A DNA stretch of 64,000 bases from an uncultured delta proteobacterium (GCA_963736855.1 CAVTQK010000015.1:352001-416000), one strand, 5' to 3'. Positions 29,801 to 49,023 are shown, counted from the stretch's first letter. Program-made: numbers and translations. Notes: generated by a model not told the origin, from the letters alone.

Positions 29801-29841
29801 AATTGATAAGAACTATCTATTACACGGACGGACTGAACACG
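29801..29841 (-). repeat. IS91-like element end, copy 1 (left boundary of the island)
   Basis: AATTGATAAGAACTATCTATTACACGGACGGA aligns with AATTGATAAGAACTTGCTTTTACACGGATGGA at 33782. Confidence 0.7.
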
Positions 29842-30238
29842 GGAAAGAGCCTAGTGGCCGCCCTGCGCAGCAAGATCCCGGACCAACTCGACGCCGGGGA
29901 TCAGATTCTGCTGCCGCAGCTCGACCTGACCGATCCCTACCACCGCGCCAAGGCCAAATCCTGAACTTGGACATTCTCTTCCAGAAAGGTAACGATGCCC
30001 ATTCTTCGGGGAAGCGATAAAAGGGCCTCATCCCTCGACAGAACGCTGTGTAACATTGCCCTATTACCATCGCCTTTGACACAAAATAATCCTTTCCATA
30101 TCATCACTTTATACAACTGCAAGTCCTTAGTCGGACGTCTTTTCGGCCATTACTGCCATCGGGATTCGAGGTCGCGGTTTTGGAATGGATTGGAGCCGCG
30201 CTGAGCAGAGGAAAACCAAGCCAAGAAAGGAGGCACGG

Positions 30239-30766
30239 ATGGAACCAGAGAACGGCAAAAGAGGGTGGAATCCCTATGTTGCCGGCGCGCTGACAGGGCT
30301 CCTGCTGGTCTTTTCCGTCTGGTTTACGGGGAAGTACGTAGGGGCATCCACAACCTTCGTCAGGTCCGCCGGTTACATCGAAAGGATCTTTAACGAGGAA
30401 CGGGTGGCCCAGATCGCTTACTTCAAGAAGGAACTCCCAAAGATCGATTGGCAGTTTCTGTTTGTCATCGGCATCTTCTTCGGGGCCCTCGCGGCTTCGA
30501 CAACTTCCCGGTCCTTCCGCTGGCAGGCCGTCCCTTCCCTCTGGGAAGGCCGTTTCGGACCGACTGTCCCGAAGCGGGCCGTGATCGCCTTCATCGGCGG
30601 CGCCGTGGCCATGTTCGGAGCCCGCCTTGCCGATGGGTGACCGAGCGGACACGGACTGAGCGGTTCGCTTCAGTTAGCAGTCAGTGGCTATATCTCTTTG
30701 ATCTGTTTTTTTGTGGGCGGGATTGCAATGGCCCGCAGTCTCTACCGAGGAGGGAATAAATCATGA
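30239..30766 (+). CDS. Probable selenoprotein: YeeE/YedE sulfur-compound transporter half (TGA 30638-30640 read as Sec)
   Basis: AAGGAGG RBS; readthrough gives GARLADG-U-PSGHGLSG, matching the YeeE GCPSGHG motif; the frame runs to a stop overlapping the next ATG (ATGA); hairpin at 30655-30674. Confidence 0.85.
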
Positions 30767-31290
30767 GCGAGCTCGTCTATGGTTTCATAACCGGGATCAT
30801 TTTCGGCTTTCTCCTTCAGAAGGGGCGGGTCATCCGCTATGACAAACAGATTGGCGCCCTGCTCCTCGAGGATATGACCATTGTCAAATTCATGCTGACC
30901 ACGATTCTTGTGGCCATGGTGGGGGTCCACCTGCTTGTGGATCTGGGGTTGGCAAAGCTCTCCCTAAAGCCGACGATCCTCGGGGGGAATGTCATCGGAG
31001 GTCTGATCTTCGGACTCGGTTGGGGCCTTCTCGGTTACTGTCCCGGCACCCAGATGGGCGCCCTTGGCGAGGGGAGATGGGATGCCATCTGGGGAATCAT
31101 TGGCATGATCACCGGAGCGGCGCTTTTCGCCGAGGTTTATCCCGGACTGAAGGCGACGGTTCTGACTTGGGGGGATTACGGCAAAGTGACAATCCCCCAG
31201 CTTCTGGGAATCAACCATTGGCCCGTTATTGCGGTCATGGTCGTGCTGGGTCTACTCCTGTTTAGATGGTTTAAAAAGAAAGGCCTCTAA
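30763..31290 (+). CDS. YeeE/YedE family protein, second half
   Basis: GIIFGFLLQKG, GGLIFGLGWGLLGYCPGT. Confidence 0.9.
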   Translation: MSELVYGFITGIIFGFLLQKGRVIRYDKQIGALLLEDMTIVKFMLTTILVAMVGVHLLVDLGLAKLSLKPTILGGNVIGGLIFGLGWGLLGYCPGTQMGALGEGRWDAIWGIIGMITGAALFAEVYPGLKATVLTWGDYGKVTIPQLLGINHWPVIAVMVVLGLLLFRWFKKKGL

Positions 31291-31320
31291 ATCGGAATAC
31301 GCACACCTATTGTTCAATGC

Positions 31321-31350
31321 GGAACGGCCGGGATGATCCCGGCTGTTTCC
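31321..31350 (+). terminator. Hairpin after the YeeE pair
   Basis: GGAACGGCCGGGAT-G-ATCCCGGCTGTTTCC. Confidence 0.5.
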
Positions 31351-31394
31351 CCGCCTCTCTCGGCCAACTTTCGCTAAGAGCGTTGCCGATACCC

Positions 31395-31622
31395 TATGCC
31401 AAAAAGGTTTGAATGGCGACGGTAGCGCGGGGTACTGCCGTTGAATTTCTTGAGGCCAAACTGAAATAATCCTTCAGGCTTTCCCAACCGCAGTGGCTTA
31501 AGTCGGATTACAGCTTGTGGTCAAACAGAAAATAGCGCCTGAGGATCTTGGGGACACTCATCACCAGATGGAAGTGCAGGACGGCTTTGATGACATTGCC
31601 GCATAGCCATTTGCCGAACTTT
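31395..31622 (-). pseudogene. IS91-family transposase internal remnant
   Basis: Manual translation with a frameshift and a stop: KFGKWLCGNVIKAVLHFHLVMSVP/KILRRYFLFDHKL*SDLSHCGWESLK...AIQTF; homologous to 43443-43500. Confidence 0.8.
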
Positions 31623-31635
31623 GAGTTCCTGGATC

Positions 31636-32403
31636 TCACCGGCTTCCAGGTCGGGTTTCAAGGTCTTTTCCTCCCTGCCCCAAATAGAACCTGACCGGTA
31701 CATTCCTGAACTCCTTTTTACCCATATTCTGAATCTTTGCCGTAACGATAACCTCTTCCCCCAATGAAGGGGTCATGTTATTCACATTCAACTCAGTGAG
31801 CACTAGGTCGGTGGGAGGTTCCGGCGCTCGGGGAGGTTCGATGGGGCGGACGGAAGGTAGCGGCAGAAGAGGTGCCGTCGGCTTCATGGAGGGCTCCTTC
31901 CGGACAACTTCATGATGTTTGATGAAGATCTCCTGACTTCCGGCATTATCGTCCGTCTTGGATTTCTGGATTGCCCCGTCCGGATTGACATGGGCGATTA
32001 CTTTATGCTCTCCCTCGCGGCCTGCAGGGAATGCAAAGCTTGCCGTTCCCGCCTTTCGCCGGCTCAGGGAAATGTTCGAAGTTCCGAGCATCTTCTCTCC
32101 CAAGGAAAACCGCACCCGCACCGGATCAAAAACTTCTATTCCTTCACATGCAACCACAGCGGTAGCCGTGACCTCATCGCCCTGATCAACCCTTGCGCTG
32201 CTGAGGGAAAGACTCTTGAGTATCAGGTTCGGTTTTATCTTCTCGGGTTCCCGCACTTCTTTCCTGGTAGGTATCTCTCCCCGATCCTCCCGACCAGACT
32301 CCGCCTGCCTACCCTCGAACGAACGGCTCCTGCGATCCTGACCAGAAACATAAAAGGGTATACATAAAAGAAAAAGAACTCCGATCAAAATGCCCTTCTT
32401 CAT
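31636..32403 (-). CDS. Exported CARDB (Ig-like) domain protein, second domain apparently truncated by the IS91 remnant
   Basis: Signal peptide; PNLILKSL...VNPDGAI...DDN, a Pro-rich linker, then DLVLTEL...AKIQNMG...VPVRFYL ending next to the transposase remnant. Confidence 0.7.
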   Translation of the reverse strand: MKKGILIGVLFLLCIPFYVSGQDRRSRSFEGRQAESGREDRGEIPTRKEVREPEKIKPNLILKSLSLSSARVDQGDEVTATAVVACEGIEVFDPVRVRFSLGEKMLGTSNISLSRRKAGTASFAFPAGREGEHKVIAHVNPDGAIQKSKTDDNAGSQEIFIKHHEVVRKEPSMKPTAPLLPLPSVRPIEPPRAPEPPTDLVLTELNVNNMTPSLGEEVIVTAKIQNMGKKEFRNVPVRFYLGQGGKDLETRPGSR

Positions 32404-33729
32404 TATGCTCCGTCTCTACTGTTTTGAGCTCTTTTTATGGTTCGACTTCTGGAAATCGCAATGGCGACATATAGTGGAACGAAAATCAGCATGCAAATAA
32501 GCCAAAAGACCGGTCTCATCATGATCCATGAGGCGCCGACAACGGGCATCAACATGATTCTGGCTGCTCTTCGGAGCCCATCGGATTCCGATAGATAAGC
32601 AGCGATTTTCGGGGAGCATGAATAATACAACCGGACAAGGAATCTGCCCGCGCCGCTTTTAGCCAGGATTCGGTCTCGGAATTTCCTGAGGATATCGACC
32701 TGCCAGGCTACGGGAGATCCGTAGGCGGCGGTCGCGATAAAACAGCCGCCGCCACCGTCATCGGAAGGCGGCGATGAAGGGTTGGGACCCACAGCAATAT
32801 CGACAGGACCGTCACCGGCGAAAATGGATGCGATCAGGGAACAAGAATCCGCATCGATGACCGAAATGATATCATCCGATGCATTGGCGACAAATACCGT
32901 CTGGCCGGAAGGGTGGCATGCGACACCGCCGGGGTCTCGTCCCACGGCGACGGTGGAGACAACGGTGTTGGAGGCGCTGTCGATTACAGAAATGGTGTCG
33001 TCATCAGTGTTTGCAACATACACCCTGCTTCCGTCGGGCCTCACAGCCAGGCCGGATGGGTTGCTGCCGACCGTGATAAGGTCCAGACCTGCATTCGCCA
33101 ACGTGTCAATGGGCATCACGGCGTTTAAGTTTCCCGATGCGTAGGCCCGGTTTCCCGAAGGCGAAACAGCGACGCTGACAGGAAATCGCATGCCGATATT
33201 GGCCACCACGGTATTTGTTGCCGTATCGATGGTATGCACGGTCCACAGACGCAGCATGGCAACATAAACCCTTGCCCCGCTGGCATCGGCTGCAATGCCA
33301 TACGGCCAGGAGCCCAGCGTAATTGTTTGCGTCAGCGTATTCGTCGTCGCATCGATCACCGAAATCGTGAAGCTGTTGTTATTGGTCACATAGACCCGGT
33401 TTTGAGAGGAACTGAAGGCGACATCCTGAGGTTCCGGACCGACGGCTATCGTCAGCGATCACGCTGTTTAAGGCCGTATCAATGACGGATACCGTGTCGG
33501 AACCTCTGTTGGCGCAGAAGGCTCTCGAACCATCACCGTTGAGGGCTATCCCCTGGGGTTGGTCGCCGACTGGAATGGATGCGATAACCTGATAGGTGGT
33601 GGAATCCAATACGGTCACACGATCGGAGTTGAAGTTGGCAACATAGATGCGCTCGGCATGCGACTGAGCAGGCACAAGGGGAAGGCATAAAAAAATTGCC
33701 AAACCAATCCAAGAAAATCGTCTGGTCAT
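32403..33729 (-). pseudogene. YVTN/YncE beta-propeller surface protein with CFI-box-CTERM tail; frameshifted near 33453
   Basis: YVAN/YVTN repeats in both ORFs (33379-33729 and 32403-33389); removing 1 nt gives VIA-TIAVGPEPQDVAFSSSQNRVYVTN; C-terminal GGGGCFIATAAYGS. Confidence 0.8.
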
Positions 33730-33781
33730 GGTGCGATTTCTCCTACTGGGTGGTTTTCAGTTTCACTGCCGGGGTATTATT

Positions 33782-34308
33782 AATTGATAAGAACTTGCTT
33801 TTACACGGATGGATTAAGGACGAGGATGGATTGTGTTTTGTCATCATCCGTACCTCAAGATATGGGAACCTTCAGGCAATGTGACGTATATACTATTGAT
33901 TATCCGAAAGGAAATGTGCTGTCAATCGGGATTGTATAGCCAAGATGCCGTTTTCCTGGAGTGTTCGGGCATAGGTCGCCTGTCTGCGTACATTGCACAG
34001 GCAGGCGAGTCAACTTCGGACGGGTTTTTCAGAAATAAGAATCCATGGGGTAAGCCGGGTCGGCGACGTAATCCTCTGTGGAAGGCGCAACGGGGTCATC
34101 ATATGTTGCCGTCTCAATCAGGGTCGGGGCATGGGCGACATGCCTTTCCGGTCGTTTCGGATCCCATAAGTTCAGGTGGTTGAGTATTTTTTTAATCACA
34201 TCCGAATTTTCTATGAACGCGACCACCCGCATTTTTCCCTGGCACTTGGGCCAGGCCAGGGGATTGATCTCATATATTTTTTTTGGATCAGGCGCGACCA
34301 GCTTTTTC
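33782..34308 (-). mobile_element. IS91-like remnant: element end (copy 2), 3' UTR and transposase C-terminus
   Basis: KSWSRLI.../KIYEINPLAWPKCQGKMRVVAFIE...IKKILNHLNLW...MDSYF*, followed by about 250 bp also present at 48720-49023 and partly at 42904-43440. Confidence 0.85.
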
Positions 34309-34647
34309 GAAAACAAAGAGGAGGCCACTTTTGACCTGTCAACTGCCAATCGTTCGGTACGGCTTGCTGTGGATCCCGGGTATGATCTGTTTCGGCGTCT
34401 CGTTCGCGAAGAGATCCAGCCCACAGTGAATTCCATCCGGGGTTCCACTTCGCTTCTAGCCGTAGTCGCCGGAGATCCTTCTACCGATGATCTGAAGACG
34501 GTCAGAACCCTGCTCGCGGGCCTCAGCCATCCAGAAACGCACATTCTCCGCGAAGCAAATACGGTGCCGCAGCAGCTCAAAGCTCACGATATTCTCTACT
34601 TCGCCATAGGCGGGAGAAAAGGCCATCTTCCTGCCCCTTTCATCTGA
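34309..34647 (+). pseudogene. Gene fragment without a start, resembling the C-terminal region of M1-family aminopeptidases
   Basis: VRLAVDPGYDLFRRLVREEIQPTVNSI; begins at the transposase breakpoint. Family assignment is from recollection only. Confidence 0.4.
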
Positions 34648-34796
34648 AGCAGATCAAATGCTTGTTGGCAAGATCCCGCATTGCGGAAATTACAGCCATT
34701 TCATTTTCCGTAACGCACAGAATCTGGTAAAAAGCACTCGGTCAGTCGCCGCATCGCCGACTATATGTAATCTCATTTCAGAGGATCGAGAGAGGG

Positions 34797-35627
34797 CTAG
34801 TGCACTCTGATGTAGGGACTATAAATAATACCGTTTATGAGCAAATAGACGCCAAAGGCCAATGCGGCATATCCAAAGGCAAAGTAGAGTACTTTATACC
34901 AGAGAGCTGGGGCAGGGGCCTCGGCAAGCTCGAGATTCCCCTTTTTTTCTAGTCGCTCCACCCAGGCCGGTTTTTCCTCCATGGCTTCTTTAAGTTTGAC
35001 AGTGCCTGCGAACATCGCCTCATTCAATGGAAAACTGAAGGGTCGAAGATGCCCGACAAAAAAATGAATTATGAAGATGTAAAGAACCGCCAAGATTGCC
35101 TCCGCCTCGTGCAAGAGGCCGGCCACATTGAGTCCCCAGCCAGGCAATATGCGGCTTGTGGCGAGAGGATACATGAGCATGAGCCCGGTGCCTGCCAGCA
35201 GTGGTAAGCCCCAGAAGACCGCCCAGTAATCGAACTTCTCCCAGTAGGCCCAACGGTCCAATTTAGGGGGCGAACCTAATCCAAAAAACCATAGAATTCG
35301 CTGCCATAGATGCCGTGCATCGTGAAAGTTGGGAACCAGAGAGTCCGGCCCCAAAATGCTTTCTCCCAAATTCCGCCAGTCAACCTTGGTGAAGAGGTAT
35401 ACGACATGCACCAGGAAACCGACAATCATCAAGAGACCTACCCGTTGATGGATCAGAAACGAGGAGTCATAACCCCCGAAGACATTGCTGAGTGTCTTGC
35501 CCCAAGAGGTGGTAATGAATAGACGACTGAAACCGGTGGCCGACTGAATCAGAAAGGTTAGCATAAGGAAGAAATGAAACAGCCGATCTATCTTATTAAA
35601 TCGTTTTATATGCATTGTCGACTTCAT
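34797..35627 (-). CDS. Di-heme cytochrome b (FdnI/HydC-like, CbcL membrane-domain type)
   Basis: RLFH, IHQRVG, RWAYWEKFDYWAVFWG and LHEAEAILAVLYIFIIHFF. Confidence 0.88.
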   Translation of the reverse strand: MKSTMHIKRFNKIDRLFHFFLMLTFLIQSATGFSRLFITTSWGKTLSNVFGGYDSSFLIHQRVGLLMIVGFLVHVVYLFTKVDWRNLGESILGPDSLVPNFHDARHLWQRILWFFGLGSPPKLDRWAYWEKFDYWAVFWGLPLLAGTGLMLMYPLATSRILPGWGLNVAGLLHEAEAILAVLYIFIIHFFVGHLRPFSFPLNEAMFAGTVKLKEAMEEKPAWVERLEKKGNLELAEAPAPALWYKVLYFAFGYAALAFGVYLLINGIIYSPYIRVH

Positions 35628-36307
35628 TTCTCAGACTTCCCTTTCTTCCTGAATAGCTCACGCAAGCCCACCAGAACACTATGCGGCACAAAGAAACCCA
35701 GTGTGAAAAGTAATAGCAAGAGCATAAACCAGTAAGTGTAATACAGGAGGGGAAAGCTCTTCTTGGTTCCTGGCGCCCCTGGTGCAGGTTCATGGATAAC
35801 ATAACTGGCGAAAGATGCACCCGCACCCTCATGACACTTGGCGCATACGTACGCATGCTTCCGGATCGGGTTCATGGGTGAATTAAAGTATTGAATGCTG
35901 GCAATGGGTTCCCCCCCATGACACTGCCGGCAGGTTAAGTTGGCACGCACCGTGTGGATGTCTTTCGTCTGCTCGGAATGGCAGGTCTGGCAGGTCTTCT
36001 CCGTGTAAAACGCAATTCCCATGTGAGAGTCGCCAAGGCGCGAGCGGTTCCTCACCTGGGCCGCTGACGGGCTGTAGGGAAACAACCCGACCTGAACGCC
36101 GGGGACCTCGATGAAGGGCCGCTGGCGCCTTGGCCGCACTTCATACTCCTCATAATAGCCCGTGCTGGCCTCCCGGTCCTTATACCGTCGGATCGCGGAA
36201 GCCACCTCCTCCTGGGCGGAGGCCGGGGGCGGCAGGGCAAAGAGTACGCCTGCCGCCACGGTGACCAGCACGATCAAGAGCCTCAGAGTGACTGATGACC
36301 TTGCCAT
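35624..36307 (-). CDS. Membrane-anchored triheme cytochrome c
   Basis: Signal peptide; CQTCH, CRQCH and CAKCH; C-terminal TM helix ending FFVPHS. Confidence 0.85.
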   Translation of the reverse strand: MARSSVTLRLLIVLVTVAAGVLFALPPPASAQEEVASAIRRYKDREASTGYYEEYEVRPRRQRPFIEVPGVQVGLFPYSPSAAQVRNRSRLGDSHMGIAFYTEKTCQTCHSEQTKDIHTVRANLTCRQCHGGEPIASIQYFNSPMNPIRKHAYVCAKCHEGAGASFASYVIHEPAPGAPGTKKSFPLLYYTYWFMLLLLLFTLGFFVPHSVLVGLRELFRKKGKSEK

Positions 36308-36320
36308 CGTGCTCTCCTGT

Positions 36321-37604
36321 TCATTTCTTTGGGGTAGCCAGCTTGTAACCGATTGGCTCGATGGGTTTCCCGACCGGTTTGGGAATTTTTGCCAAGGCCT
36401 CCCACTCTGCCTGCAATTTTTTCAAATCCTCATTCTTGTGCTTGTGGCAGGTCTGGCAGGAGTTGGGCATATCCTTGTTATTGAGCGTCTCCGCGGGCAG
36501 CAGGGTGACAAACACATGGCTGTGCAAGTCACCGGACTCGGCACTGGTTACGATCCGCGGCATGTGGCAGCCTACGCAGTTAGCGAAGGAGTGGATTGAG
36601 TGGGCCATGTTCTGATTGGTTTGGACATGGCACTGAAAACATTGCTTGGAACCCGCTGCCTGGGTCTGGGAGCGGGTCGGCGGTACTCCGATCTGGTGCA
36701 CGTAGTGGCATGACACGCAATTCACGCCTTCCTTGAAATGTTTGGACTGCTTCCAGTCGATGTATTGCTGGTGATGGGCCTTGGAGAACTCGTTGCCGTA
36801 AAGGTGATTTGCGTCGCCGCCGGCGAATGAGGTGGACTTGAAATAGCTTTCCAGTACTCTACCGGGCTCGTAGCCCACGGCCCACTCCGCATCCTTGTAT
36901 TTGGTGGCCTTGCCGCGGTTGTGGCAGGAGCCGCAAATCTCCACGGCCACTCCCGAGGTGAGCTTGGAGGGGTTGACGATGGTCTGCCTCTTTTCGAAAA
37001 CGGCTGTCTTGGGCAGCGCCGCGTGCCAGGACCCTTTCCCATGGCAGGCTTCGCAGCCCACGGCAGGCTCGACGAATTTTTGCTTGTCGAGATCGACGCC
37101 GGTGGCATGGCAACCGCCGCACTTGAGTAGCCAGGGATTTTTATCCCAAGTGGCCTCGTTATAGTTCACCCAGCGATCGGTGTCGGCATTGTATTGAACC
37201 GGGGAGATATATAGCACGCCGCCCTTTTCCACGATGTAACGCTGTTTCCACTGGCTGCCGATGGTATATTTTATGTCTTCGATTTTGGGGATAAAAATTT
37301 GATCGGCCGGGACCTTCAGCTTGTCGCCAAGTTTGGCGAGATCTTCGCGGATTCTCTTCTCGTCGAAATCCGCTATGATCGCGTCCCTGTTTTTCTGGGC
37401 ATCCTGGGTCATGCGGCTGTGGAGTGTCATCATCCAGGAATCGAAGTGCTCCAGGTGGCACATCTTGCAGGTGTCCGACCCGACATAGGCTTTCGGCTGT
37501 GCCATGAGCTGCTTGATGTCAACCGCCTTCTCTCCGCCGCAGGCGGACAGGACCAGGGCCATGACACCGATGGTCAGGACCGCTATCAACGCTCTTGCCT
37601 TCAT
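36321..37604 (-). CDS. Octaheme c-type cytochrome lipoprotein
   Basis: GGAGG RBS; LSA-C lipobox; eight CxxCH motifs (CKMCH, CGGCH, CEACH, CGSCH, CVSCH, CFQCH, CVGCH, CQTCH). Confidence 0.9.
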   Translation of the reverse strand: MKARALIAVLTIGVMALVLSACGGEKAVDIKQLMAQPKAYVGSDTCKMCHLEHFDSWMMTLHSRMTQDAQKNRDAIIADFDEKRIREDLAKLGDKLKVPADQIFIPKIEDIKYTIGSQWKQRYIVEKGGVLYISPVQYNADTDRWVNYNEATWDKNPWLLKCGGCHATGVDLDKQKFVEPAVGCEACHGKGSWHAALPKTAVFEKRQTIVNPSKLTSGVAVEICGSCHNRGKATKYKDAEWAVGYEPGRVLESYFKSTSFAGGDANHLYGNEFSKAHHQQYIDWKQSKHFKEGVNCVSCHYVHQIGVPPTRSQTQAAGSKQCFQCHVQTNQNMAHSIHSFANCVGCHMPRIVTSAESGDLHSHVFVTLLPAETLNNKDMPNSCQTCHKHKNEDLKKLQAEWEALAKIPKPVGKPIEPIGYKLATPKK

Positions 37605-38030
37605 TTCGACCTCCGTGAGTTGGGTTTGGGTGTGATCACACTTCTGAGCAGGCACATGAACTCGTCTGGGTCTACCGGCCTCCCCGGGCAGGCGCAAATT
37701 TGACGCTTGAGGGACTCTTCCAGGTTCAAAAGCAAAGGTTCACAGGCCAAGGCGATGATCGTGAGCGGGTGCTCGATCTTGAGCTCGCGCAGTGCGGTGT
37801 GGATGAACTGTTTCGCATACAGATCGCTGACGAGAAATCACTTTTCGACAATTTTAACCTATCACATGGTGTGGAACTTTGTCAATGGTTTTTGTTTCGA
37901 CATGGCAATCATAGAGATCATTCGCCTGTAAGACACGATTCATCCTTGGTTCGGGGCATGACCTCATTCTTTATGCCAGTATCTCGAGGACTGCTGGTCT
38001 TGCATGAAAACGTTAAGTCCAGGTTTAGGG

Positions 38031-38186: not shown

Positions 38187-38419
38187 ATCGGGGGCCAGCA
38201 GGGAAGATTTACTTTGCTGAGGACCTCACATCGACGCTTCACCACTATTTTGTGTGGAAAACGTTGAAAAAGCTGCTCAGGCAGTCTTGCCGGTTTGTGC
38301 GGTGGACTTAACATCAATGCAGTGCAATCAAAACTTGACTATGGTACACTTCTTCAAATCGATGCCCCATGCAGGCCAGCCAGAACATACGCAACGCTCC
38401 TATACCTTTAGGCAAATTG

Positions 38420-38500
38420 AATTGATAAGAAGTCGCTTTTTTGCGGGTGGATAAAGCAAGAGCATGAAGTGTGTTTTACCATCGTCTGGACCCCAAGATC
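38420..38500 (-). repeat. IS91-like element end, copy 3
   Basis: AATTGATAAGAAGTCGCTTTTTTGCGGGTGGATAAAGCAAGAGCATGAAGTGTGTTTTACCATCGTCTG is nearly identical to 42904 and 46195. Confidence 0.85.
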
Positions 38501-38570
38501 TGAGCATTTCAAATCCTGAGATTGGCAGCGGATATACGGAATCTGCCACTGCTGTGGGTGCTGACTTCTG

Positions 38571-41500: not shown

Positions 41501-41630
41501 TGCCGGGAAGATTCTTTTCCACTGAGCGCAGGGTGACGTTGGTGTGGATCCCTGCCGCAATCAGGGCGACAAGGACGGATACCACGGCGCTCCAAAGCAA
41601 AATCTTGATAATGGGTGGAGGCCGTCTCAT
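38571..41630 (-). CDS. Membrane hybrid histidine kinase (2TM-PAS-GAF-PAS-HisKA-HATPase-REC)
   Basis: [37 protein letters not shown] with LDLIMP; ATG at 41630 overlaps the TAXI stop (ATGA). Confidence 0.93.
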
Positions 41631-42817
41631 GGGGTTGGCGTTCTTTTGGAAACTATGCCATGCTCTCGGTAGAATCGTTCTGCTCCCGGATGAAGCGGGA
41701 TCGAAATGCCTTGCAAGGCGGTCTTGAGGGTAATCGCCTTTCCTTGGGGGTGCCCGCCTTTCAAAAGCGACAGTGTCCGCTCGCTCCACAAGGAAGCGGT
41801 CAGCTGGTAAACGAGGTCTTCGGGAATCGCTGAGCTGACCACCAGCAGGGCATGGACCTGCAGGGTCGGAGTATCCGGAACCCCCGGATAAGCACCGGCG
41901 GGTATTTCACCTGGGACGAGGTAAGGAAATTTTGCATTGATCCGCAACGCAATCTCTCGGTCAATGGGAACAAAGAATAGCCCAATATCGGCTACACGCT
42001 GGGCCGCTTCCATGGGAATGCCCGCCATCACTACAAAACCCTGAAGTTCACCTTTCACCATTTTGTCATCAGTAAAATTGGGCTTCAAATACAATGGGTA
42101 CATATCTTTCTCGGACAAGCCATAGGCATCGAGAACGATTCGCATCACCATCAGCGAGCCTGAACCGATTTCGTCGATGGAAATCCGTTTCCCGCGGAGA
42201 TCCGACACGCTGCGTATGTTGGCATCCCGGCGTGTCACGATCTGAAATTTCTCGGGGTAGAGGCTCGCAACCGCACGGACGACTTTGACGCTTTCATCCC
42301 CGGCGAAAACCCGCTCTCCCTGAAAGGCCCAAGCTGCAACGTCGGCTTGGACTATTCCAGTTTCGATCTCTCCGGATGCCAGCGCCCGCACGTTGGCTAC
42401 CGAGCCGCCGGAACTTTGGGCCACACCGATGTATCCCGGCAGTCCAAGCACTCCGGCTTGAGGCATAGCCTCTCCTTCAGCAGGCCCAGTCAAACCCTGC
42501 GCAATCAACTTGCCAACCGGATAATAGACGCCTGAAGTCCCACCCGTTCCGATGCGAAACAGTCGTTTTGCTTCTCCCACACAGGGGGCGGGCATGGCCG
42601 TCAGCAGAAACAAACACAATATCATCAGCATGTAAGGTACCGGAATTCGGTCATTACGATCCGATCCAGGTATCCCTCGCACAACCGGGAGTTGTCTTTT
42701 CGTTCGATAAGATCTTACAAGCTGTCTCAGTCGCTGCCGATTCATTTCCTCTTGCTCCTCCCGGTTGAGATATCGACCAAAACCGTCTCTTACGCTCATG
42801 ACCTGAAGATGTTGCAT
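41627..42817 (-). CDS. TAXI-family TRAP solute-binding protein (start uncertain)
   Basis: RIGTGGTSGVYYPVG, SGGSVAN, IVQADVA, SLYPE and IPLHPGAERFY. Confidence 0.92.
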   Translation of the reverse strand: MQHLQVMSVRDGFGRYLNREEQEEMNRQRLRQLVRSYRTKRQLPVVRGIPGSDRNDRIPVPYMLMILCLFLLTAMPAPCVGEAKRLFRIGTGGTSGVYYPVGKLIAQGLTGPAEGEAMPQAGVLGLPGYIGVAQSSGGSVANVRALASGEIETGIVQADVAAWAFQGERVFAGDESVKVVRAVASLYPEKFQIVTRRDANIRSVSDLRGKRISIDEIGSGSLMVMRIVLDAYGLSEKDMYPLYLKPNFTDDKMVKGELQGFVVMAGIPMEAAQRVADIGLFFVPIDREIALRINAKFPYLVPGEIPAGAYPGVPDTPTLQVHALLVVSSAIPEDLVYQLTASLWSERTLSLLKGGHPQGKAITLKTALQGISIPLHPGAERFYREHGIVSKRTPTP

Positions 42818-42903
42818 ATGTGACCGATCTCTGGAATGTATATCTGTTGTGGGAACATTCTGTGCGTTGTCGATGAGTCTATCTGGAGTGAGTCCACCGA
42901 TTC

Positions 42904-43725
42904 AATTGGCAAGAAGTCGCTTTTTTGCGGGTGGATTAAGCAAGAGCATGAAGTGTGTTTTACCATCGTCTGCACCCCAAGATATGGGAACACACATTTG
43001 TCGTGGCGTGTAAATTCTCGATTAACTGAAGGGAAATCCGCTGTCAATACGAATTTTATCTGCAAGAGGCCATTTTCCCGGCTGGTTCGAGCATAGGCCA
43101 CCTGTCTGCCGGCCAGGTAGGGATCGCACAGGCAGGGCGGGTCAACTCCGGACGGATTTTTCAGAAATAAGAATCCATGGGGTAAACCGGGTCGGCGACG
43201 TAATCCTCTGTGGAAGGCGCAACGGGGTCATCGTATGTCGGGTGTTCAATCAGGTTCGGGGCATGGGCGACGGGCCTTTCCGGTTGTTTCGGATCCCATA
43301 AGTTCAGGTGGTTGAGTATTTTTTTTATTCACATCACGATCTTCGATAAACGCGACCACCCACATTTTCCCCTGGCACTTGGGGCAGATCAGGAGATCGA
43401 CCTCATATATTTTTTGGATCAGGCGCGACCCGCTTTTTCTAAGTGCCGGTGGGGGACGGCTTTGATGACTTTTTCACACAACCATTGCCCGAACTCCACC
43501 ACGCGCTTCTGATGACACGAGGGACAAAAGTGACGCCTTTTGCATGGAAAGGACAAAAGGTATTCGTGACCGCACTTCCCGCACCGAACCCTGGCGAACC
43601 CGTTATGGAGCACCCCGCAATCTAGATACCAATGGATCACCTCTTTGACATACGGGCGGAAAAAGCTGTATCCCCTCTCAAATCGATCTTCATAGATGCG
43701 TTCAAAGTTGGATTCAACAACATTG
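42904..43725 (-). mobile_element. Internally deleted IS91-family element: end (copy 4), transposase C-terminus and N-terminal Zn-binding domain
   Basis: YLDCGVLHNGFARVRCGKCGHEYLLSFPCKRRHFCPSCHQKR...VPHRH joined at about 43440 directly to the ...RLIQKIYEVD...CPKCQGK C-terminal region. Confidence 0.9.
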
Positions 43726-43891
43726 ACTCTCGACCTCCGGTGGGCAAGGAAGGCATCAGAGGCTGATAGTGATCAGTCCTTTTTCCCACCAGAGGCGAGA
43801 AAGGGGAAGGTTTGTTCCATTTTTTAAGACAAACAATTGGTGGAGCGGAAGCTTTCCCGCCCGCACATTGCGTTTCTTCTCCAAAGAGGCG

Positions 43892-44494
43892 TTAGAAATC
43901 ATAATCATAAGTTTCGTCGTGAGCCGGTTTAATATCTTTCATCATGACCACGACATCAACCGGCATGTTGTTCCGGTCCTTGACCATGTTCGGAATCACT
44001 GTTGCACGATAAAATCCCGCTCTGGCGAAAGCGTTGATAGCCGATGTGTTGATGTCCGGAATCTCGACGAGTAGTTTTTCAAGCCCGAGTTTGTAAGCGA
44101 TGTCCGCGAGCTCTTCGATCATCAGATGCCCCAGACCGATGTTGCGGTAGTCTTTGTGCACAAAGATCCGCACAGTACCCAGGTGCCATTTCCAGCCGGA
44201 TCGACGGCGATTGATAGTGGCATCGGCAACAATTTTGCCATCTCTTACTGCCACGATGGGCAGGGTCTTGGCATAGTCGAGGTTCTTCGCCCATTTTTCA
44301 ATAAGGAGCCTGCTTGAAACCTCGTCACGCAAATACCGTGCATCTTCTGCGGGAACCGCCTGGAAAAACTCATACACAGCGTCCTTATCTTCTGCCACCA
44401 TAGGACGTAGAATAATCTTGGTCCCATCTTTCAGATGAGTTTCCTTGTGATATGTGTTTAAATTGATTGTGGGATAAATGTTGGGATCCAACAT
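43892..44494 (-). CDS. GNAT-family N-acetyltransferase
   Basis: LKDGTKIILRPM, FVHKDYRNIGLG and NTSAINAFARAGF; AAGGAGG RBS. Confidence 0.88.
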   Translation of the reverse strand: MLDPNIYPTINLNTYHKETHLKDGTKIILRPMVAEDKDAVYEFFQAVPAEDARYLRDEVSSRLLIEKWAKNLDYAKTLPIVAVRDGKIVADATINRRRSGWKWHLGTVRIFVHKDYRNIGLGHLMIEELADIAYKLGLEKLLVEIPDINTSAINAFARAGFYRATVIPNMVKDRNNMPVDVVVMMKDIKPAHDETYDYDF

Positions 44495-44599
44495 GGCGAG
44501 TACCTCCTTTCATCTCTCAGGGGTTAATTGATCGAGGTCTGTCCGCAAGACAGGCTCTCCGGACAGGTTCCTTAGTAAACTCGTTCACGAATGCACAAA

Positions 44600-44615
44600 A
44601 GCATTCTCCGTGCCG
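44600..44615 (-). promoter_or_regulatory. Sigma54 promoter for the GNAT gene
   Basis: CGGCACGGAGAATGCT (GG-N10-GC); an ATTGCAT-N12-ATGCAAT palindrome lies about 100 bp upstream (44712-44737). Confidence 0.6.
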
Positions 44616-44761
44616 GATTTAGAAGACCGAATTAGCTAGAGGTAAGATATTGAAAAAGAATGGAATATTAGGAAAACATTAGTTTCTGAAAGGTCAGGCA
44701 TTCCGCCAAGTATTGCATTTTTGCACGACTATGCAATGCACAAATGTAGGTATGCAATCTC

Positions 44762-46156
44762 TCATGAACTCTTGCCGCTCGAACGACCGTTGCGTACCGG
44801 AATTTGAAGATTCAGGCGCCTTATTCTGCGCCACAAAGTGGTAGGGTGTATACCCATTTGGGCAGCGGTTAACTTCCGGCTCCAGTTATTCCTCCGAAGA
44901 TTTCCATAGATAAAATCTTTTTCCATGTCTGCCAATGAAGATGCAGACGCCATGATCTGTTCAGGAGACGGTATTACCCTATGTGCTAGCTTTCGGTGGA
45001 CGCTCTCAGGAAGATGCTCTATCCTTACCACGTGATCTGTACAAACCAATGTGGCATATTCGATGATATTTTCCAATTCCCGAATATTACCCGGATAATC
45101 ATAAGACATCAGAATACTCATGGCTTCAGGCGACATACCATGAACTTCTTTGCCCCTCAGACGGCTAAATCTTTGGACAAAATGCTCCACTAATAGAGGA
45201 ATATCTTCTTTTCGCTTTCTCAATGGCGGGAGAATTAGCTTGACGATATTGATCCGATAATAGAGATCTTCTCTAAACAGTCCCTTTTGAACGAGTTCTA
45301 CAAGGTTCTTGTTTGTAGAAACCACTATGCGGACGTTGGCCTTTTCCGATTTTGTGCTGCCGAGTGGTTCGTAGACTTTGTCTTGGAGCACTCGCAGGAG
45401 CTTAACTTGAAGCAACATCGAGATGTCTCCGATTTCATCCAAGAAGAGACTCCCATTTTGAGCCAGAGCCAGCCTTCCCGGTTTGTCCCTCTTTGCATCG
45501 GTAAACGCACCGGCTTTGTATCCAAAGAGCTCGGATTCGAGGAGCGTATCCGGTAATGCACCGCAGTTTACGGTAATCATCGGCCCCGTTTTTCTATGAC
45601 TGAGTGAGTGGATCGCTCTTGCAAAAAGTTCTTTTCCCGTTCCGCTTTCGCCTTCCAAGAGGATTGTTGTATCATCTTTAGATACCAACTCGAGCATTTC
45701 AAATAGGCGATGCATCTCCCGGTTGTTGCTGATAATGCCCAAAAAGGAATGCTGACCGGTCAGTTCTTTCAGTAGTTGTTCAACCATTCTTAGATCTCTA
45801 AATGTCTCAATTCCTCCGATCACTTTGCCGCTTTGATCTTTCAAGACAGCCGTAGAAATTGTTACAGGAATCCGGTCACCTTTTAAATCAACTATATAGA
45901 TGAATTGGTTCATAATCGGTTGGCCTGATTCAATTGTCTGACGCAGGGAGCATCTCTGCTCACAGATTTCGGCTTTGAATACTTCCCGGCAATATCGGCC
46001 AATTGCGTCGACTTTCTTGACTCCCGTGATCTGTTCAGCGGCACAGTTGAAAAAGCTAATCTTCCAGTCCGAGTCGACGGTAAAAACGCCGTCGGTAATG
46101 TTGTCAAGGATCATCTGGGTCTGATTTTCATGTGCTGTGTTCAAAGTTTGAATCAC
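44762..46156 (-). CDS. PAS-domain sigma54-dependent activator with C-x8-C-x3-C motif
   Basis: CREVFKAEICEQRC; GESGTGKE, GAFTDA, LFLDEIG and YPGNIREL; HTH. Confidence 0.92.
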   Translation of the reverse strand: MIQTLNTAHENQTQMILDNITDGVFTVDSDWKISFFNCAAEQITGVKKVDAIGRYCREVFKAEICEQRCSLRQTIESGQPIMNQFIYIVDLKGDRIPVTISTAVLKDQSGKVIGGIETFRDLRMVEQLLKELTGQHSFLGIISNNREMHRLFEMLELVSKDDTTILLEGESGTGKELFARAIHSLSHRKTGPMITVNCGALPDTLLESELFGYKAGAFTDAKRDKPGRLALAQNGSLFLDEIGDISMLLQVKLLRVLQDKVYEPLGSTKSEKANVRIVVSTNKNLVELVQKGLFREDLYYRINIVKLILPPLRKRKEDIPLLVEHFVQRFSRLRGKEVHGMSPEAMSILMSYDYPGNIRELENIIEYATLVCTDHVVRIEHLPESVHRKLAHRVIPSPEQIMASASSLADMEKDFIYGNLRRNNWSRKLTAAQMGIHPTTLWRRIRRLNLQIPVRNGRSSGKSS

Positions 46157-46194
46157 TTTCTCAGTCGACCTGTTTCTCAGCTAAAGTACCATTG

Positions 46195-46316
46195 AATTGA
46201 TTAGAAGTTGCTTTTTTACGGACGGATTAAACAAGAGCATGAAGTGTGTTTTACCATCGTCTGCACCCCTCGCATTTTCACCTGGCACTTGAAGCAGATC
46301 AGGGGATCGACCTCAT
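46195..46316 (-). repeat. IS91-like element end, copy 5, fused to a short transposase piece
   Basis: AATTGATTAGAAGTTGCTTTTT...CCATCGTCTGCACCCC joined to CATTTTCACCTGGCACTTGAAGCAGATCAGGGGATCGACCTCAT (compare 43363-43406). Confidence 0.85.
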
Positions 46317-47738
46317 TTATTCCGCCATAACCGTCCGGTTGCGGCCATCGGTTTTTGCTTGGTAGAGCGCCTTGTCCGCCCGGTGGAAGCACTCGTCAAT
46401 AGACATTTCTCTTTCCATCTGGCAGACGCCGAGACTGGCTGTCATGCTGATTTTCTGGTCGTCAATCACGGCCGGGTTCTCGGCAAAATGGAGGCGGATT
46501 TTTTCAGCCACTTCCTTTGCCCCTGCTTTTTCTGTCCCGGGAAGCAGGATAAGAATCTCTTCTCCTCCCCATCGGGCAACGGCGTCCTGGTCTCTTAACA
46601 TGTTCCGTAAGGTTTGCGATACGTACATCAGCAATTTATCGCCCATTTCATGGCCGAACCGGTCGTTGACTTGTTTAAAATGATCCAGGTCAATAAGTAT
46701 AATCGACGAACCTTCCCCACTTCTCTTGATCCTTTTAAATTCCTGTTCCAGCAGAGAGATCATTGCGCGGCGGTTGATCATTCCTGTGAGGTAGTCGGTG
46801 GTAGCGGCTGTTTCCAATGCAGCTTCGGCACGCTTGCGCTCCTCTATCTCCTGCCGGAGTTGTTCATTGACCTCGGCAAGCCGGGCGGTTCGCTCGACGA
46901 CTCGAGTTTCAAGAGAATTCCTGGCATCCTGGAGTTCGTTCATGGCTTGTTGCGTGTGTTCATGGCTTTTTCTGAGACGGTTGGACATGGTGTTAAAAGC
47001 ATTGGCAAGGTCGCTTAATTCATCGCGGGTATCCACTTCCACCTGTCCGGGGAAGATTCCGTCGGCGATTTCGCTGGATCGCCGTACAAGAAGGCTGATC
47101 GGCCGGATAATGCGAGCGGCCTGTATTTTACTGAACCCGTACGCCAGCAGGAATGAGAGGACAAGCGAAACAAGACCCGCGATTCGGATGGTGCGGAATT
47201 TTTGCTGGACGTCATCGGCGCGCATGTCTATTCCCAATAGATACTGCCCCTTGCCATTCTTTAACGGCGCATAGCCGGAAAGAAAACATCCCCATTCATC
47301 GCAGGTGATTTTACTGTCTGCGGTAAGATTTTCAAATCCGTGTTTCATGTTCGGGACTTCGACATCATAAAGTTTGCCGGGATGTGCCTGAGCATCCGAT
47401 GTATCTGAGTCAATGACAAATACGATGTCTTCGCCCTGCTTGCGCATGATATAGATAAACGCGATATCTTTATTGGCTGTCTGAAATTCTCTGAGCATTT
47501 TCAGATAATTCTGATAGGCGGGAAGAGATGCGTCCTGGGGACCCTTGATGTCCACAATATCATTGGCATCCATTGCGCGGCTGATGAGTGCCGCGCTGTT
47601 CATCAGCCGGTTCTGGAGTTGTTTGAATAACGTACTGATGGCGCTGTGGTAAAAATACGTGCCGATGCTGCCGGAAACCAGAATAATGACCAGAAAGTGG
47701 CTATAAAAGAGTTTTTTCTGGATTGTAAAACGCATCAA
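46317..47738 (-). CDS. Membrane sensor diguanylate cyclase (periplasmic sensor, HAMP, GGDEF)
   Basis: DELSDLANAFNTM (HAMP); TDYLTG, IDLDHFKQVNDRFGH and RWGGEEI. Confidence 0.9.
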   Translation of the reverse strand: MMRFTIQKKLFYSHFLVIILVSGSIGTYFYHSAISTLFKQLQNRLMNSAALISRAMDANDIVDIKGPQDASLPAYQNYLKMLREFQTANKDIAFIYIMRKQGEDIVFVIDSDTSDAQAHPGKLYDVEVPNMKHGFENLTADSKITCDEWGCFLSGYAPLKNGKGQYLLGIDMRADDVQQKFRTIRIAGLVSLVLSFLLAYGFSKIQAARIIRPISLLVRRSSEIADGIFPGQVEVDTRDELSDLANAFNTMSNRLRKSHEHTQQAMNELQDARNSLETRVVERTARLAEVNEQLRQEIEERKRAEAALETAATTDYLTGMINRRAMISLLEQEFKRIKRSGEGSSIILIDLDHFKQVNDRFGHEMGDKLLMYVSQTLRNMLRDQDAVARWGGEEILILLPGTEKAGAKEVAEKIRLHFAENPAVIDDQKISMTASLGVCQMEREMSIDECFHRADKALYQAKTDGRNRTVMAE

Positions 47739-47891
47739 CCGGATCTCCGTAAAGTTGAAAGGTCAGTTAGGGCGCTGCGGCCGAAGGGCAATCATATCCC
47801 GGGTGATTTTACTTTTTTCCCAGGAGCATCTTAAGCACGCGATGTCTGAAGAGGCTACTAGAGAGTCCGGCAATCGATCCGACGCGCCACG

Positions 47892-48167
47892 GTGAGCATA
47901 CCACTTTTGTGGAACCAACCGTTCAAAAATTCGCATCGATTGAATGTCTATCAACTTACGACCTGCTTTCCGTACTTCAATCCCATAGAGAAACTATGGA
48001 AAAAGGTCAAACAGGATGGAACTTATCCTCATTACTTCCCCACATTTGAAGACCTCGTCGGAAAGGTTGATGAGATCCTCCCTCTATTTCAAAACTCTCC
48101 AGATGAAATCCTTTCCCTCTTTGGTCTCAACAACGAACTTGAAAACCATGCGAGGCTGGCAGCATAA
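47892..48167 (+). pseudogene. IS630-family transposase C-terminal remnant
   Basis: FPYFNPIEKLWKKVK...HYFPTFEDL resembles the YSPxxNPIExxW motif of IS630 DDE transposases. Confidence 0.7.
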
Positions 48168-48223
48168 TCTCACACCAAAATATTCTTTTTAAAACCATAG
48201 AAATCCACAGAAAGGGAGTCTCA

Positions 48224-48655
48224 CTATCTATTCTCTAAAGCGGCCAGTCGATCCCTAAGCTCTTTTTCCTTTTGCCATCTGGTGGTTACATCGCGAACAA
48301 TCGCGGCAGAACCCAAGATTTCTCCAATGGAAAAGCGTACAAGAACCATACTGAATTCAACGGAAATGCGTGTTCCGTCCTTCCGCATTGCCGGTACTGC
48401 CAGCAATTCTCCGGCGTAACGGGTAGAACCGGTCGCCATAACCTTACGGTAGCCCTCCCAATGCCGGGTCCGTAGTTTCTCAGGGATAATGAGATCGAGG
48501 CTTTGCCCCGTTGCCTCTTCTGCACTAAATCCGAAAATGGATTCCGCCCCCGAATTCCAAAGCTCGATTTGACCATCTCGATTTGCGAAGATGATTGCAT
48601 CTTGGGTTTGATCCACAATTTGTCGGTACAACCACTCGTTCGTGTATTTCTGCAT
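48224..48655 (-). CDS. Stand-alone PAS-domain protein
   Basis: DAIIFANRDGQIELWNSGAESIFGFSAEEATGQSLDLIIPE...RKDGTRISVEFS. Confidence 0.9.
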   Translation of the reverse strand: MQKYTNEWLYRQIVDQTQDAIIFANRDGQIELWNSGAESIFGFSAEEATGQSLDLIIPEKLRTRHWEGYRKVMATGSTRYAGELLAVPAMRKDGTRISVEFSMVLVRFSIGEILGSAAIVRDVTTRWQKEKELRDRLAALENR

Positions 48656-48705
48656 TGGGCAACCTCTTGATATCTTATCAAATTTAAAGCCCCGGATACC
48701 TCCTG

Positions 48706-49023
48706 AATTGAATTGATTGAATTGATAAGATTGATAAGAACTCGCTTTTACAAAGGCGGGTTAAGGACGAGGATGGATTGTGTTTTGTCATCATCTGTAC
48801 CTCAAGATATGGGAACCTTCAGGTAATGTGACGTATGTACTATCAATTATCCGAAAGTGAACGTGCTGTCAATCGGGATTGTATCGCCAAGATGCTGTTT
48901 TCCTCGTGTGTTCAAGCACAGGCCTCCTTTATACGTGCATCGCACAGGCAGGGCGGGTCAACTCCGGACGGATTTTTAAGAGTAAGAATCCATGGGGTAA
49001 ACCGGGTCGGCGACGTAATCCTC
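48706..49023 (-). mobile_element. IS91-like element end, copy 6, with stuttered junction and 3' UTR (right boundary of the island)
   Basis: About 290 bp colinear with 33782-34077; similarity stops after GGCGACGTAATCCTC. Confidence 0.85.

Follow-up and report, generated by a model that had tools for sequence, protein, structure and literature searches.

A chromosomal island of respiratory and sensory genes divided by remnants of an ISCR-like element

The island and its features

The window analysed here, a stretch of 64,000 nucleotides from an uncultured delta proteobacterium (genome G000), contains a 19.3-kb island that is cut into seven cargo blocks by six co-oriented oriIS ends (e1 to e6) and two origin-less transposase fragments. 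In order along the sequence, the features of the island and its flanks are:

29114..29794, plus strand: left flank, DVU0298-family (HEAT) core gene (NF045662 above cut-off)
29801..29848, minus strand: e1, oriIS terminus alone (about 48 nt) at the left island edge; nearest relative e2
30185..31290, plus strand: block 1, YeeE/YedE sulfur-transport pair (PF04143 matches)
31404..31636, minus strand: origin-less transposase fragment, aa 92-169
31636..33729, minus strand: block 2, YVTN beta-propeller/CFI-box protein (frameshifted here) and CARDB protein
33782..34390, minus strand: e2, oriIS, 3' untranslated part and transposase C-terminus (aa about 322-444); sibling of e6
34797..37697, minus strand: block 3, cytochrome b, triheme and octaheme c-type cytochromes (Pfam; 3 and 8 CXXCH)
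38416..38502, minus strand: e3, oriIS (83 nt) with one junction duplication; e4 95% identical over 75 nt
38571..42817, minus strand: block 4, hybrid histidine kinase and TAXI solute-binding protein
42904..43709, minus strand: e4, oriIS and a transposase with an internal deletion that joins its C-terminal part to aa 26-158
43892..46156, minus strand: block 5, GNAT acetyltransferase and PAS sigma-54 activator
46191..46321, minus strand: e5, oriIS (75 nt) joined to a short piece of transposase; one junction duplication
46317..47738, minus strand: block 6, HAMP-GGDEF diguanylate cyclase (DGC)
47783..47922, minus strand: origin-less transposase fragment, middle region
47892..48167, plus strand: IS630-family transposase fragment (NF033545, below cut-off, E 1.8e-5)
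48224..48655, minus strand: block 7, stand-alone PAS protein
48707..48729, strand unassigned: four short junction duplications ahead of e6
48729..49032, minus strand: e6, oriIS, 3' untranslated part and transposase tail; innermost, cargo-free beyond
49154..49528, plus strand: right flank, zincin gene (homology to relative G005 is back from 49116)

All eight remnants lie on one strand, and the six same-strand motif copies of the original prediction are indeed present, starting at 29801, 33782, 38420, 42904, 46195 and 48729 with spacings of 3981, 4638, 4484, 3291 and 2534 nt. Only the sixth needs adjustment: it had been placed at about 48720, which is the last of the four short duplications before its true start. 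As was claimed, e1 begins 6 nt past the stop of the DVU0298-family gene (29794). One coherent module per interval is not what we find in two cases, where origin-less transposase fragments (31404-31636 and 47783-47922) separate the YeeE pair from the surface proteins and the DGC from the PAS protein, thus giving eight remnants and seven blocks. Nor are all genes on the transposase strand, as the YeeE pair and the IS630 fragment lie on the opposite one. From end to gene start there are 53, 87, 39 and 74 nt at copies 2, 4, 5 and 6, and 814 nt at copy 3; about 40-65 bp had been given for three genes.

With regard to the cargo, the first YeeE/YedE reading frame has an in-frame TGA in a G-x-P-S-G motif (we translated through it), which we infer to encode selenocysteine. 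No close solved structure was found for the octaheme cytochrome. Among 11 family genomes, block 2 DNA has no match and block 6 none at E<=1e-60; blocks 1, 2, 6 and 7 were not found elsewhere in the relatives searched.

The empty site that had been proposed as a check is seen in G005, where homology stops at 29751 on the left and starts again at 49116 on the right, so that the island begins 50 nt ahead of e1 and ends 84 nt beyond the e6 remnant. Comparison with G005 gives no base-exact insertion point: the empty-site junction is heavily diverged, and a 44-nt core fits neither flank better than shuffles do. Relatives G002-G004 have different neighbours within 1.5 kb, and a metagenome scan with the zincin gene gave 19 loci (18 distant homologs at 69-74% and one short match), none with a HEAT gene or an end, so that the HEAT-zincin adjacency is known from G005 alone. 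The predicted lack of an integrase is borne out, as none of the 14 PF00589 matches of G000 falls inside the window; there is no tRNA at the island site either.

The element and its transposase

The copies in the array are decayed (64-95% alike over 75 nt). The longest remnant, e4, has a PF14319 match at 43440-43703 and is apparently a mosaic, the best match switching along the length of both e4 and e6. Chance is ruled out as an explanation of the matches, since reversed-genome controls gave none at our cut-offs and six ends fell within 19.3 kb in 1 of 5000 random placements. Nearest-relative comparison agrees with the two motif subtypes noticed originally: e3, e4 and e5 make up one chain of siblings and e1, e2 and e6 another, so that for all six the closest relative lies within this array.

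The identification of the ends as non-autonomous IS91-family origins is supported. The intact relative L044 scores 173 bits against NF033538 (cut-off 125) and passes PF04986 and PF14319, as an HUH transposase with the IS91 zinc and Y2_Tnp domains should. Over their main stretches, the remnants in the window share 53-60% identity with intact relatives. A motif about 250 bp 3' of the transposase stop had been predicted; it lies 247 nt past the stop (34029) in e2 and 214-268 nt past it in 24 relatives, which makes it a candidate oriIS 3' of the gene. ISCR elements have one catalytic tyrosine. In six of six aligned relatives the first position of the YxxxY motif is N, and canonical IS91 has two catalytic tyrosines (PMC5714925). 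Judging from these sequence features, the element is an ISCR-like, single-tyrosine HUH member of the IS91 family, lying outside ISCR clade Ia as defined by NF052416 (144 bits against a curated cut-off of 925).

No intact cognate transposase was found in G000 or in 11 family genomes at E<=1e-30. An open 411-aa frame on contig C24 was considered as a partner and rejected: it is of the two-tyrosine type, with both tyrosines present, is 25% identical, and is unlikely to act on these ends. A conserved upstream boundary, the candidate terIS, occurs in four copies at strong E-values in G000, none of them in the window. The family is expected to make no target duplication and to lack terminal inverted repeats; the 25 longest inverted repeats include no pair of ends. 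The ISCR oriIS carries an outward promoter, according to the portion of PMC6218425 that deals with it. A sigma-70 match of at least 10/12 is present in 33 of 42 relatives' ends; at a threshold of 9/12 there is none in the 53 ends of G000, nor did the window scan find one inside the six ends, so that promoter donation is ruled out here for the sigma-70 type only. attC-like hairpins, predicted to be absent, were not found, all six ends folding no better than shuffles (z -0.6 to 0.9) with no Rfam match. Nor did we find the Rep-helicase protein and 3' hairpin end of a Helitron: intact relatives have about 440-460 aa, and L044, the one scanned for domains, shows just the two IS91 domains.

Distribution of the ends

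G000 has 53 ends, 21 of them on the plus strand of their contigs and all decayed. A DNA search across the order gave weak matches in 5 of 100 other genomes, among the six candidates scored in each. The array in the window is the largest of several co-oriented clusters, and a unique, dedicated platform is thereby ruled out. Ends scattered genome-wide in both orientations had been named as grounds for rejecting the original prediction. That is partly what we see, since the 53 ends occupy both strands; yet they are clustered and co-oriented.

One could argue that the island is just a tolerated hotspot where insertion-sequence debris piled up and the ends carried nothing. The genome-wide scatter of decayed ends and the IS630 debris within the island speak for this, and as far as the account in PMC3189936 goes, most IS801 fragments were likewise assigned to reorganisation. 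In our opinion it is nevertheless improbable. Neighbouring ends within 10 kb are co-oriented in 13 of 14 cases (8 of 9 without the window array) versus 11 of 20 distant pairs, and replichore bias as a source of this is weak (25/38 units, p=0.07). The nearest relative lies in the same array for 9 of 20 ends (6/6 here and 3/3 in a second array) against a null mean of 1.0; this signal belongs to the two arrays only, as none of the 11 ends in the five remaining clusters shows it. Element DNA bounding both island edges and the element-linked relocation of blocks described below also count against mere debris, and the reordering seen in another strain weakens the idea further. The other clusters sit in larger islands whose borders are not formed by ends, and two of them are located at tRNA-Leu genes.

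A second alternative is that the cargo was gathered in some other way, and that origin fragments then hopped a few kilobases outward, on the same strand, into AT-rich gene leaders, serving as recombination points only later. The sibling chains are consistent with this, and so is the position of 28 of 52 ends less than 200 nt from an outward-reading gene start, compared with 27% of motif-matched intergenic sites. Among relatives' loci, a parent has a co-oriented truncated sibling 1.9-4.5 kb outside in 4 of 21 cases and one in the opposite orientation in 1 of 21. At L067 the 540-nt copy is 100% identical and ends at the same tetranucleotide that precedes its origin; such loci of a parent with a truncated outer sibling are young versions, and they speak equally for the array model set out below. 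We regard local hopping as an unlikely account of the island, albeit one to be taken seriously, because both edges fall at element DNA at a site that is empty in G005, blocks 4 and 5 touch element DNA on the same side at other loci, the site has neither integrase nor tRNA, and 53 of 53 ends lack an outward sigma-70 promoter through which insertions of this kind might be selected.

Movement of cargo blocks

The expectation that modules are movable, and differently ordered in another strain, turned out to be correct. G005 has blocks 4 and 5 beside the same element at other loci. Block 5 is flanked there by a transposase remnant and an end, at a tRNA-Leu site, and its homology with our copy stops at the e5 junction. 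Block 4 lies on the inner side of a different end, at a site matching G000 C21:798567, where G000 has a bare end and the far-side backbone of G005 ends in a co-oriented transposase piece; the G005 assembly consists of 310 contigs, and the two sides of block 4 are on separate ones. Block 3 is found beside tRNA-Leu in G003, without the element. The element is likewise missing from all 24 homologous loci, each read to about 1.5 kb, which is what a state before capture should look like. At least two blocks are 88-92% identical to their G005 counterparts, and the backbone mean is 91.6%. Given this similar divergence, at least two blocks were relocated within the lineage rather than freshly imported. 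Another G005 insert, of 5.3 kb, carries two ends and has host DNA of roughly 380 nt duplicated on its two sides, the mark of circle integration.

The conspecific run X1 provides a reordered strain. A single 5386-nt contig reads PAS, e6, transposase tail, cytochromes, e3, and so joins block 7 to block 3 through e6. The original prediction expected breakpoints at the motif; the only reorder junction seen falls instead within element homology, which favours recombination between remnants over repeated insertion at one site.

Since X1 and G000 disagree at e2/e6, repeat-induced misassembly of either has to be considered. It is very improbable: exact repeats reach no more than 46 nt inside the array and 62 nt outside it, X1 contigs cross six of the same block-to-end junctions as in G000, and the joint in X1 lies between long stretches of unique sequence and includes 28 letters peculiar to it.

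Run X2 has a joint like that of X1, from 48962 to 34171, which we left out of the count; the contigs of X2-X4 are short.

Junction duplications

Short duplications, composed of the local tetranucleotide and 0-37 nt of the origin, occur at the junctions of 17 of 51 ends in G000 (null mean 0.4) and 8 of 24 ends in relatives (null 0.19). IS91 and ISCR elements have a tetranucleotide with T at position 2 next to oriIS (PMC13181058). At the 51 ends it is ATTG in 23, has T at position 2 in 34, and most have TG at positions 3-4. A covariation test of element against target as its source was not significant, and L067 fits both.

The duplications are left unexplained by the array model set out below. 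They point to repeated events at exactly this junction, and it is conceivable, if doubtful, that the transposase prefers its own resident oriIS junction, where it would nick, extend and rejoin, leaving short duplications, and would also dock circles of origin and cargo. A full alternative can be built on this, in which the HUH enzyme nicks resident origins and joins origin-cargo circles there, the origin being an attachment site at which arrays grow. The number of duplication units differs between two copies in one genome (L062, L070), the innermost and cargo-free e6 bears most units, and block 5 homology stops at the e5 junction, all in keeping with homing. However, the X1 reorder junction and the mosaic switches lie within element homology, no terIS-like sequence adjoins any G000 origin, and the covariation test of whether the tetranucleotide travels with the element was not significant. 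As an account of the whole island we therefore consider homing rather unlikely, and somewhat less likely than local hopping.

A model for the origin of the island

We think it probable, though far from certain, that the island is an array built by the ISCR-like IS91-family element and still rearranged through its remains. The best reading of the route is ISCR1-type capture, circle formation and return by homology, with the homology supplied by the element itself. First, one-ended rolling-circle transposition, known for IS801 and with one clear case here, would scatter oriIS-bearing 3' fragments over the chromosome. Second, replication from an origin may read on through the adjacent block to give a circle of origin and cargo; alternatively, two co-oriented remnants may recombine and excise the block as such a circle. 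Third, the circle would return by homologous recombination at a similar resident remnant. This would leave the cargo inside the origin with element DNA on both sides, would hold all copies in a single orientation, and would favour close siblings. Fourth, once the transposase had decayed, the remnants would act as direct repeats for excising, moving and reordering blocks; the moved and reordered blocks themselves are observed.

In the assembled contigs no circle was seen, and no crossover was mapped to the base. The remnants now share at most 46 identical nt, a poor substrate for recombination, and hence the events may be old.

The array would be a by-product platform and not a dedicated machine; dead transposons seem to serve in it as a scaffold on which cassettes are swapped, with no integrase involved. 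If this is true, respiratory and signalling modules are still reshuffled by host recombination after transposase loss, and, if the preference for resident origins is true as well, arrays in Desulfobacterota are cassette platforms that need no integrase and are extended at their own origins. This suggests that dead elements may go on moving such modules in environmental anaerobes.

Comparison with known systems

The case for gene capture by ISCR elements has been built largely on resistance plasmids, and PMC6218425 (2018) states that experimental evidence of ISCR transposition was lacking. The present locus is a natural chromosomal record: its site is empty in one relative, blocks have been relocated, one strain has another order, and there are young pairs of parent and daughter beside intact transposases. 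It is now testable whether cargo returns by homology or by transposase, and so is the position of the cut, of which the junction duplications may be a record.

ISCR or IS91 arrays with cargo between copies are already in the literature, non-resistance genes included. The closest are the ISCR1 complex class 1 integrons, for which the Toleman model, as outlined in PMC7707992, proposes a rolling-circle cargo circle, homologous re-entry and tandem co-oriented units. The circle with cargo and the homologous return are shared with our model, and the tandem co-oriented units, which vary in number between strains, with our array. The differences are that here there is no integron 3' segment, the homology comes from the element, the copies are decayed and chromosomal, the cargo is respiratory and sensory, and this lineage has no outward sigma-70 promoter.

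The miniature right-end fragments of IS801 in Pseudomonas syringae, going by the relevant portion of PMC3189936, are similar in being one-ended 3' pieces at a target-like tetranucleotide, in carrying neighbouring DNA and in providing homology for recombination; no ordered multi-unit array is described there, and that genome has intact IS801 copies. Sandwich capture of armA and sul4 by ISCR28 (Yuan 2024, as sketched in PMC12772301) likewise encloses a gene, with a remnant bearing an additional oriIS on one side and another copy on the other; it involves one gene and two origins linked to an integron, in contrast to six origins and seven blocks. The IS91-linked sdpA cluster of Sphingobium herbicidovorans MH, to the extent covered in the pertinent part of PMC5737581, also has non-resistance cargo and tandem units between repeats, and an 11-kb circle was observed there. 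It is plasmid-borne, with repeated cargo and mostly whole elements, while our array has different cargo in each unit and relic ends. Integrons too have ordered, reorderable blocks parted by a repeated short sequence, but here there is no tyrosine recombinase and there are no hairpin sites, the blocks are multi-gene (0.4-4.3 kb), and the junctions fall within homology. What is new, then, is that a route known from resistance plasmids would here be a chromosomal one, with respiratory and sensory genes.

Layout of the array and its insertion site

The six ends (e1 to e6) bearing the oriIS motif, i.e. the replication-origin end 3' of an IS91/ISCR transposase, share the same strand and are found at 29801, 33782, 38420, 42904, 46195 and 48729, and their comparison bears out the two subtypes claimed in the original prediction. 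Together with two origin-less transposase fragments they make eight remnants, which cut the region into seven blocks.

Remnants without origin and cargo blocks
31404-31636, same strand as the six ends: origin-less transposase fragment
47783-47922, same strand as the six ends: origin-less transposase fragment
Block 1: YeeE pair
Block 2: beta-propeller and CARDB proteins
Block 3: cytochrome b, triheme and octaheme cytochromes
Block 4: hybrid kinase and TAXI
Block 5: GNAT and sigma-54 activator
Block 6: diguanylate cyclase
Block 7: PAS protein

In G005, a genome of the same genus, the DVU0298 gene is directly followed by the zincin gene, an adjacency found at this one of the 29 relatives' loci fetched; it is the empty site that had been named as support. 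Homology between G005 and the window ends at 29751, which is 50 nt short of e1, and restarts at 49116, 84 nt beyond the e6 remnant; these are limits of homology rather than base-exact junctions. Searches of the window gave neither an integrase nor a tRNA close by nor an Rfam family that would mark the site. The idea of an integron- or Helitron-like platform was thus right about the missing integrase, but the array is neither an integron nor a Helitron.

Two short stretches (29849-30180 and 49033-49115) have no match elsewhere in the genome under study (G000) or in the relatives' fetched stretches. The first YeeE ORF (30185-30760) ends at a TGA inside a G-x-P-S-G motif and its frame runs on; judging from sequence, this TGA probably encodes selenocysteine. 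The beta-propeller gene (32403-33729) is frameshifted, and contigs from X1 and X4, sequencing runs of related strains, differ by one base at 33453. Left of the island, an oxidative-stress cluster (23151-29045: rubrerythrin, desulfoferrodoxin, ferritin, flavodoxin, flavodiiron protein, ferredoxin) is conserved in the genus.

Identity of the element

An N-terminal transposase remnant from contig C19 of G000, run against the genome collection, gave 418 confirmed stretches and 80 returned loci, 38 of them with an open frame of 435-470 aa. L044, the single relative tested, exceeds the IS91 cut-off of NCBIfam but not the one for ISCR clade Ia. In an alignment, six relatives all show the HUH motif; they have a single tyrosine where the other IS91 type of G000 has two. 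A single tyrosine is an ISCR trait. IS91 has a two-tyrosine motif (PMC5714925). In 24 relatives the distance from the transposase stop to the end motif 3' of it is 214-268 nt, which places the motif where oriIS lies. Neither G000 nor any of 11 family genomes yielded an intact copy of this subfamily. The array is a real ISCR-like relic array, working like a complex ISCR1 integron.

Contig C24 of G000 carries an open 411-aa two-tyrosine IS91 transposase of a different subgroup (L001:1033-2268), beside tyrosine recombinase genes. At L044:1859-1924 a 66-nt sibling origin precedes the intact transposase start by about 100 nt, in the same orientation. Upstream of the transposase start, many but not all intact relatives (L073, L085, L100, L103 and others) have a -35 hexamer and, after it, a GAAC-N4-GTTC palindrome that resembles a LexA box. 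ISCR transposases are SOS-regulated (PMC13393415).

Clustering and kinship of the ends

Of the 53 ends in G000, 21 are on the + strand of the contig that carries them, and the family is thus not confined to this locus. Scattering in both orientations at similar density had been named as a refuting case: both strands are indeed used, but density at the array is 23 times the genome average, and one simulation in 5000 put six ends within 19.3 kb. Counting one 51-nt tandem pair as a single end (52 ends in all) gives 14 pairs of neighbours no more than 10 kb apart, against a null of 6.1; 13 of these are co-oriented (8/9 without the window array), against 11/20 distant pairs. That the ends are inert debris is, in our opinion, quite improbable.

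Compared over 75 nt (50 ends, two duplicates and one tandem partner dropped), the nearest relative lies within the same array for 6/6 window ends and 3/3 ends of the array at C21:155-165 kb, and within the same cluster for 0/11 ends of five other clusters. The C21 array is absent from the relatives G003 and G004; in G003, homology breaks off 9 nt ahead of the array's first end. Other clusters lie within larger islands, some at tRNA-Leu genes, whose limits are not set by ends. We give homing of the transposase to resident origins a small chance, somewhat below that of local hopping of ends into a pre-existing island, which is itself unlikely.

The tRNA-Leu 3' ends (G000 C13:114769, C24:154586; L124, L134) are island hotspots, often with remnants of the element, whose cargo differs among G000, G003 and G005. 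An ATPase-like gene adjoining a remnant (G000 C24:149656-151026; L172:15381-16747) is 95% identical in G003 against about 75% for the backbone, and was therefore recently transferred. A separate high-copy, MITE-like repeat of about 155 nt (L145:17872-18027; L147:3125-3280; L153:7127-7280) is 85-99% conserved among G000, G004 and G005.

Relocation and reordering of blocks

Two blocks stand elsewhere in G005. A transposase remnant and an end flank the GNAT-activator block (92% identical), which is at a tRNA-Leu site matching G000 C13:105654-114746 and whose homology with the window ends at the e5 junction. An end orthologous to G000 C21:798567 has the kinase-TAXI block (88-89%) directly on its inner side, G000 having the bare end only; on the other side of the G005 site, on a separate contig, backbone ends in a co-oriented transposase piece. 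Since both identities fall within the range of the G005 backbone blocks (87.6-95.4%, mean 91.6%), the two blocks were probably already in the common ancestor and relocated later. The G005 hybrid kinase (L131, G005:C17) lacks about 490 nt, window 40115-40606, covering the GAF domain.

The cytochrome block of G003 adjoins the same tRNA-Leu as the GNAT-activator block of G005. The 20 kb read there contain no element, and none lies within about 1.5 kb of homologous octaheme loci of the order (24/24). The relatives searched yielded none of the YeeE, beta-propeller/CARDB, diguanylate cyclase and PAS blocks.

All seven blocks are covered by contigs of the conspecific run X1, whose identity to the window is about 96-99%, and six junctions spanned by these contigs are arranged as in G000. 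The different module order sought in relatives appears in one 5386-nt contig, which reads PAS, e6, 28 other letters, transposase tail, cytochromes, e3; also in X1, the zincin flank abuts transposase sequence, that side being short (22 nt). On the simplest reading, from which we infer the full order, PAS-e6 has its place after e2 and before the cytochromes, so that each sibling set (e1/e2/e6, e3/e4/e5) is contiguous. Breakpoints had been expected at the motif; this one falls within element homology instead. As the longest exact repeat within the array is 46 nt, a collapse artefact is unlikely, and an array order produced by misassembly is hardly credible.

Younger stages in other genomes

The public loci that include an origin plus 4 kb or more beyond it number 21. 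In four of them (L056, L064, L067, L114) a truncated sibling of the same orientation lies outside the parent, at a distance of 1.9-4.5 kb; one has an opposite-oriented, distant sibling. The 540-nt copy in L067 is identical to its parent and ends at the same tetranucleotide that precedes the origin, as IS801 minis do (PMC3189936). DNA between the pairs encodes a peptidase, an amidohydrolase and ECF sigma factor, or a transglutaminase-like protein and GNAT. A separate 5.3-kb insert with two ends in G005 is flanked by a host duplication of about 380 nt. Two copies of an intact element in one genome (L062 and L070, 9823 and about 11510-11600) have an inverted second origin upstream and differ in numbers of junction duplications.

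Proposed mechanism and comparison with known systems

The best explanation, which we hold with moderate confidence, is that cargo would be captured by read-through, circles would form, and these would return by homology. It leaves two features unexplained. Tandem junction units, in which the local tetranucleotide is accompanied by 0-37 nt of origin, occur at 17 of 51 G000 ends (two duplicates dropped), including e3, e5 and e6, against 0.4 with shuffled flanks, and at 8 of 24 ends in relatives, against 0.19. They may arise when the nick falls four bases outside its usual place and is followed by brief extension and rejoining. Secondly, by crude ORF calls, 28 of 52 ends lie at most 200 nt from an outward-reading gene start, against 27% at motif-matched sites, despite the absence of an outward sigma-70 promoter: such a promoter is present in 33 of 42 relatives' ends and in 0 of 53 G000 ends, so we reject promoter donation of this type by the latter.

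The openly accessible literature searched gave no description of the junction duplications, which are a further new observation. The proposed mechanism follows the model for multicopy ISCR1 units (PMC7707992), and has precedents in the ISCR28 sandwich (summarised in PMC12772301) and the IS91-linked sdpA circle (PMC5737581); one-ended transposition and target tetranucleotides have been described (PMC13181058, PMC9676059). The kind of array is known; what is new is that comparison of genomes supports a relocation and reordering, linked to the element, of respiratory and sensory blocks in a chromosome.
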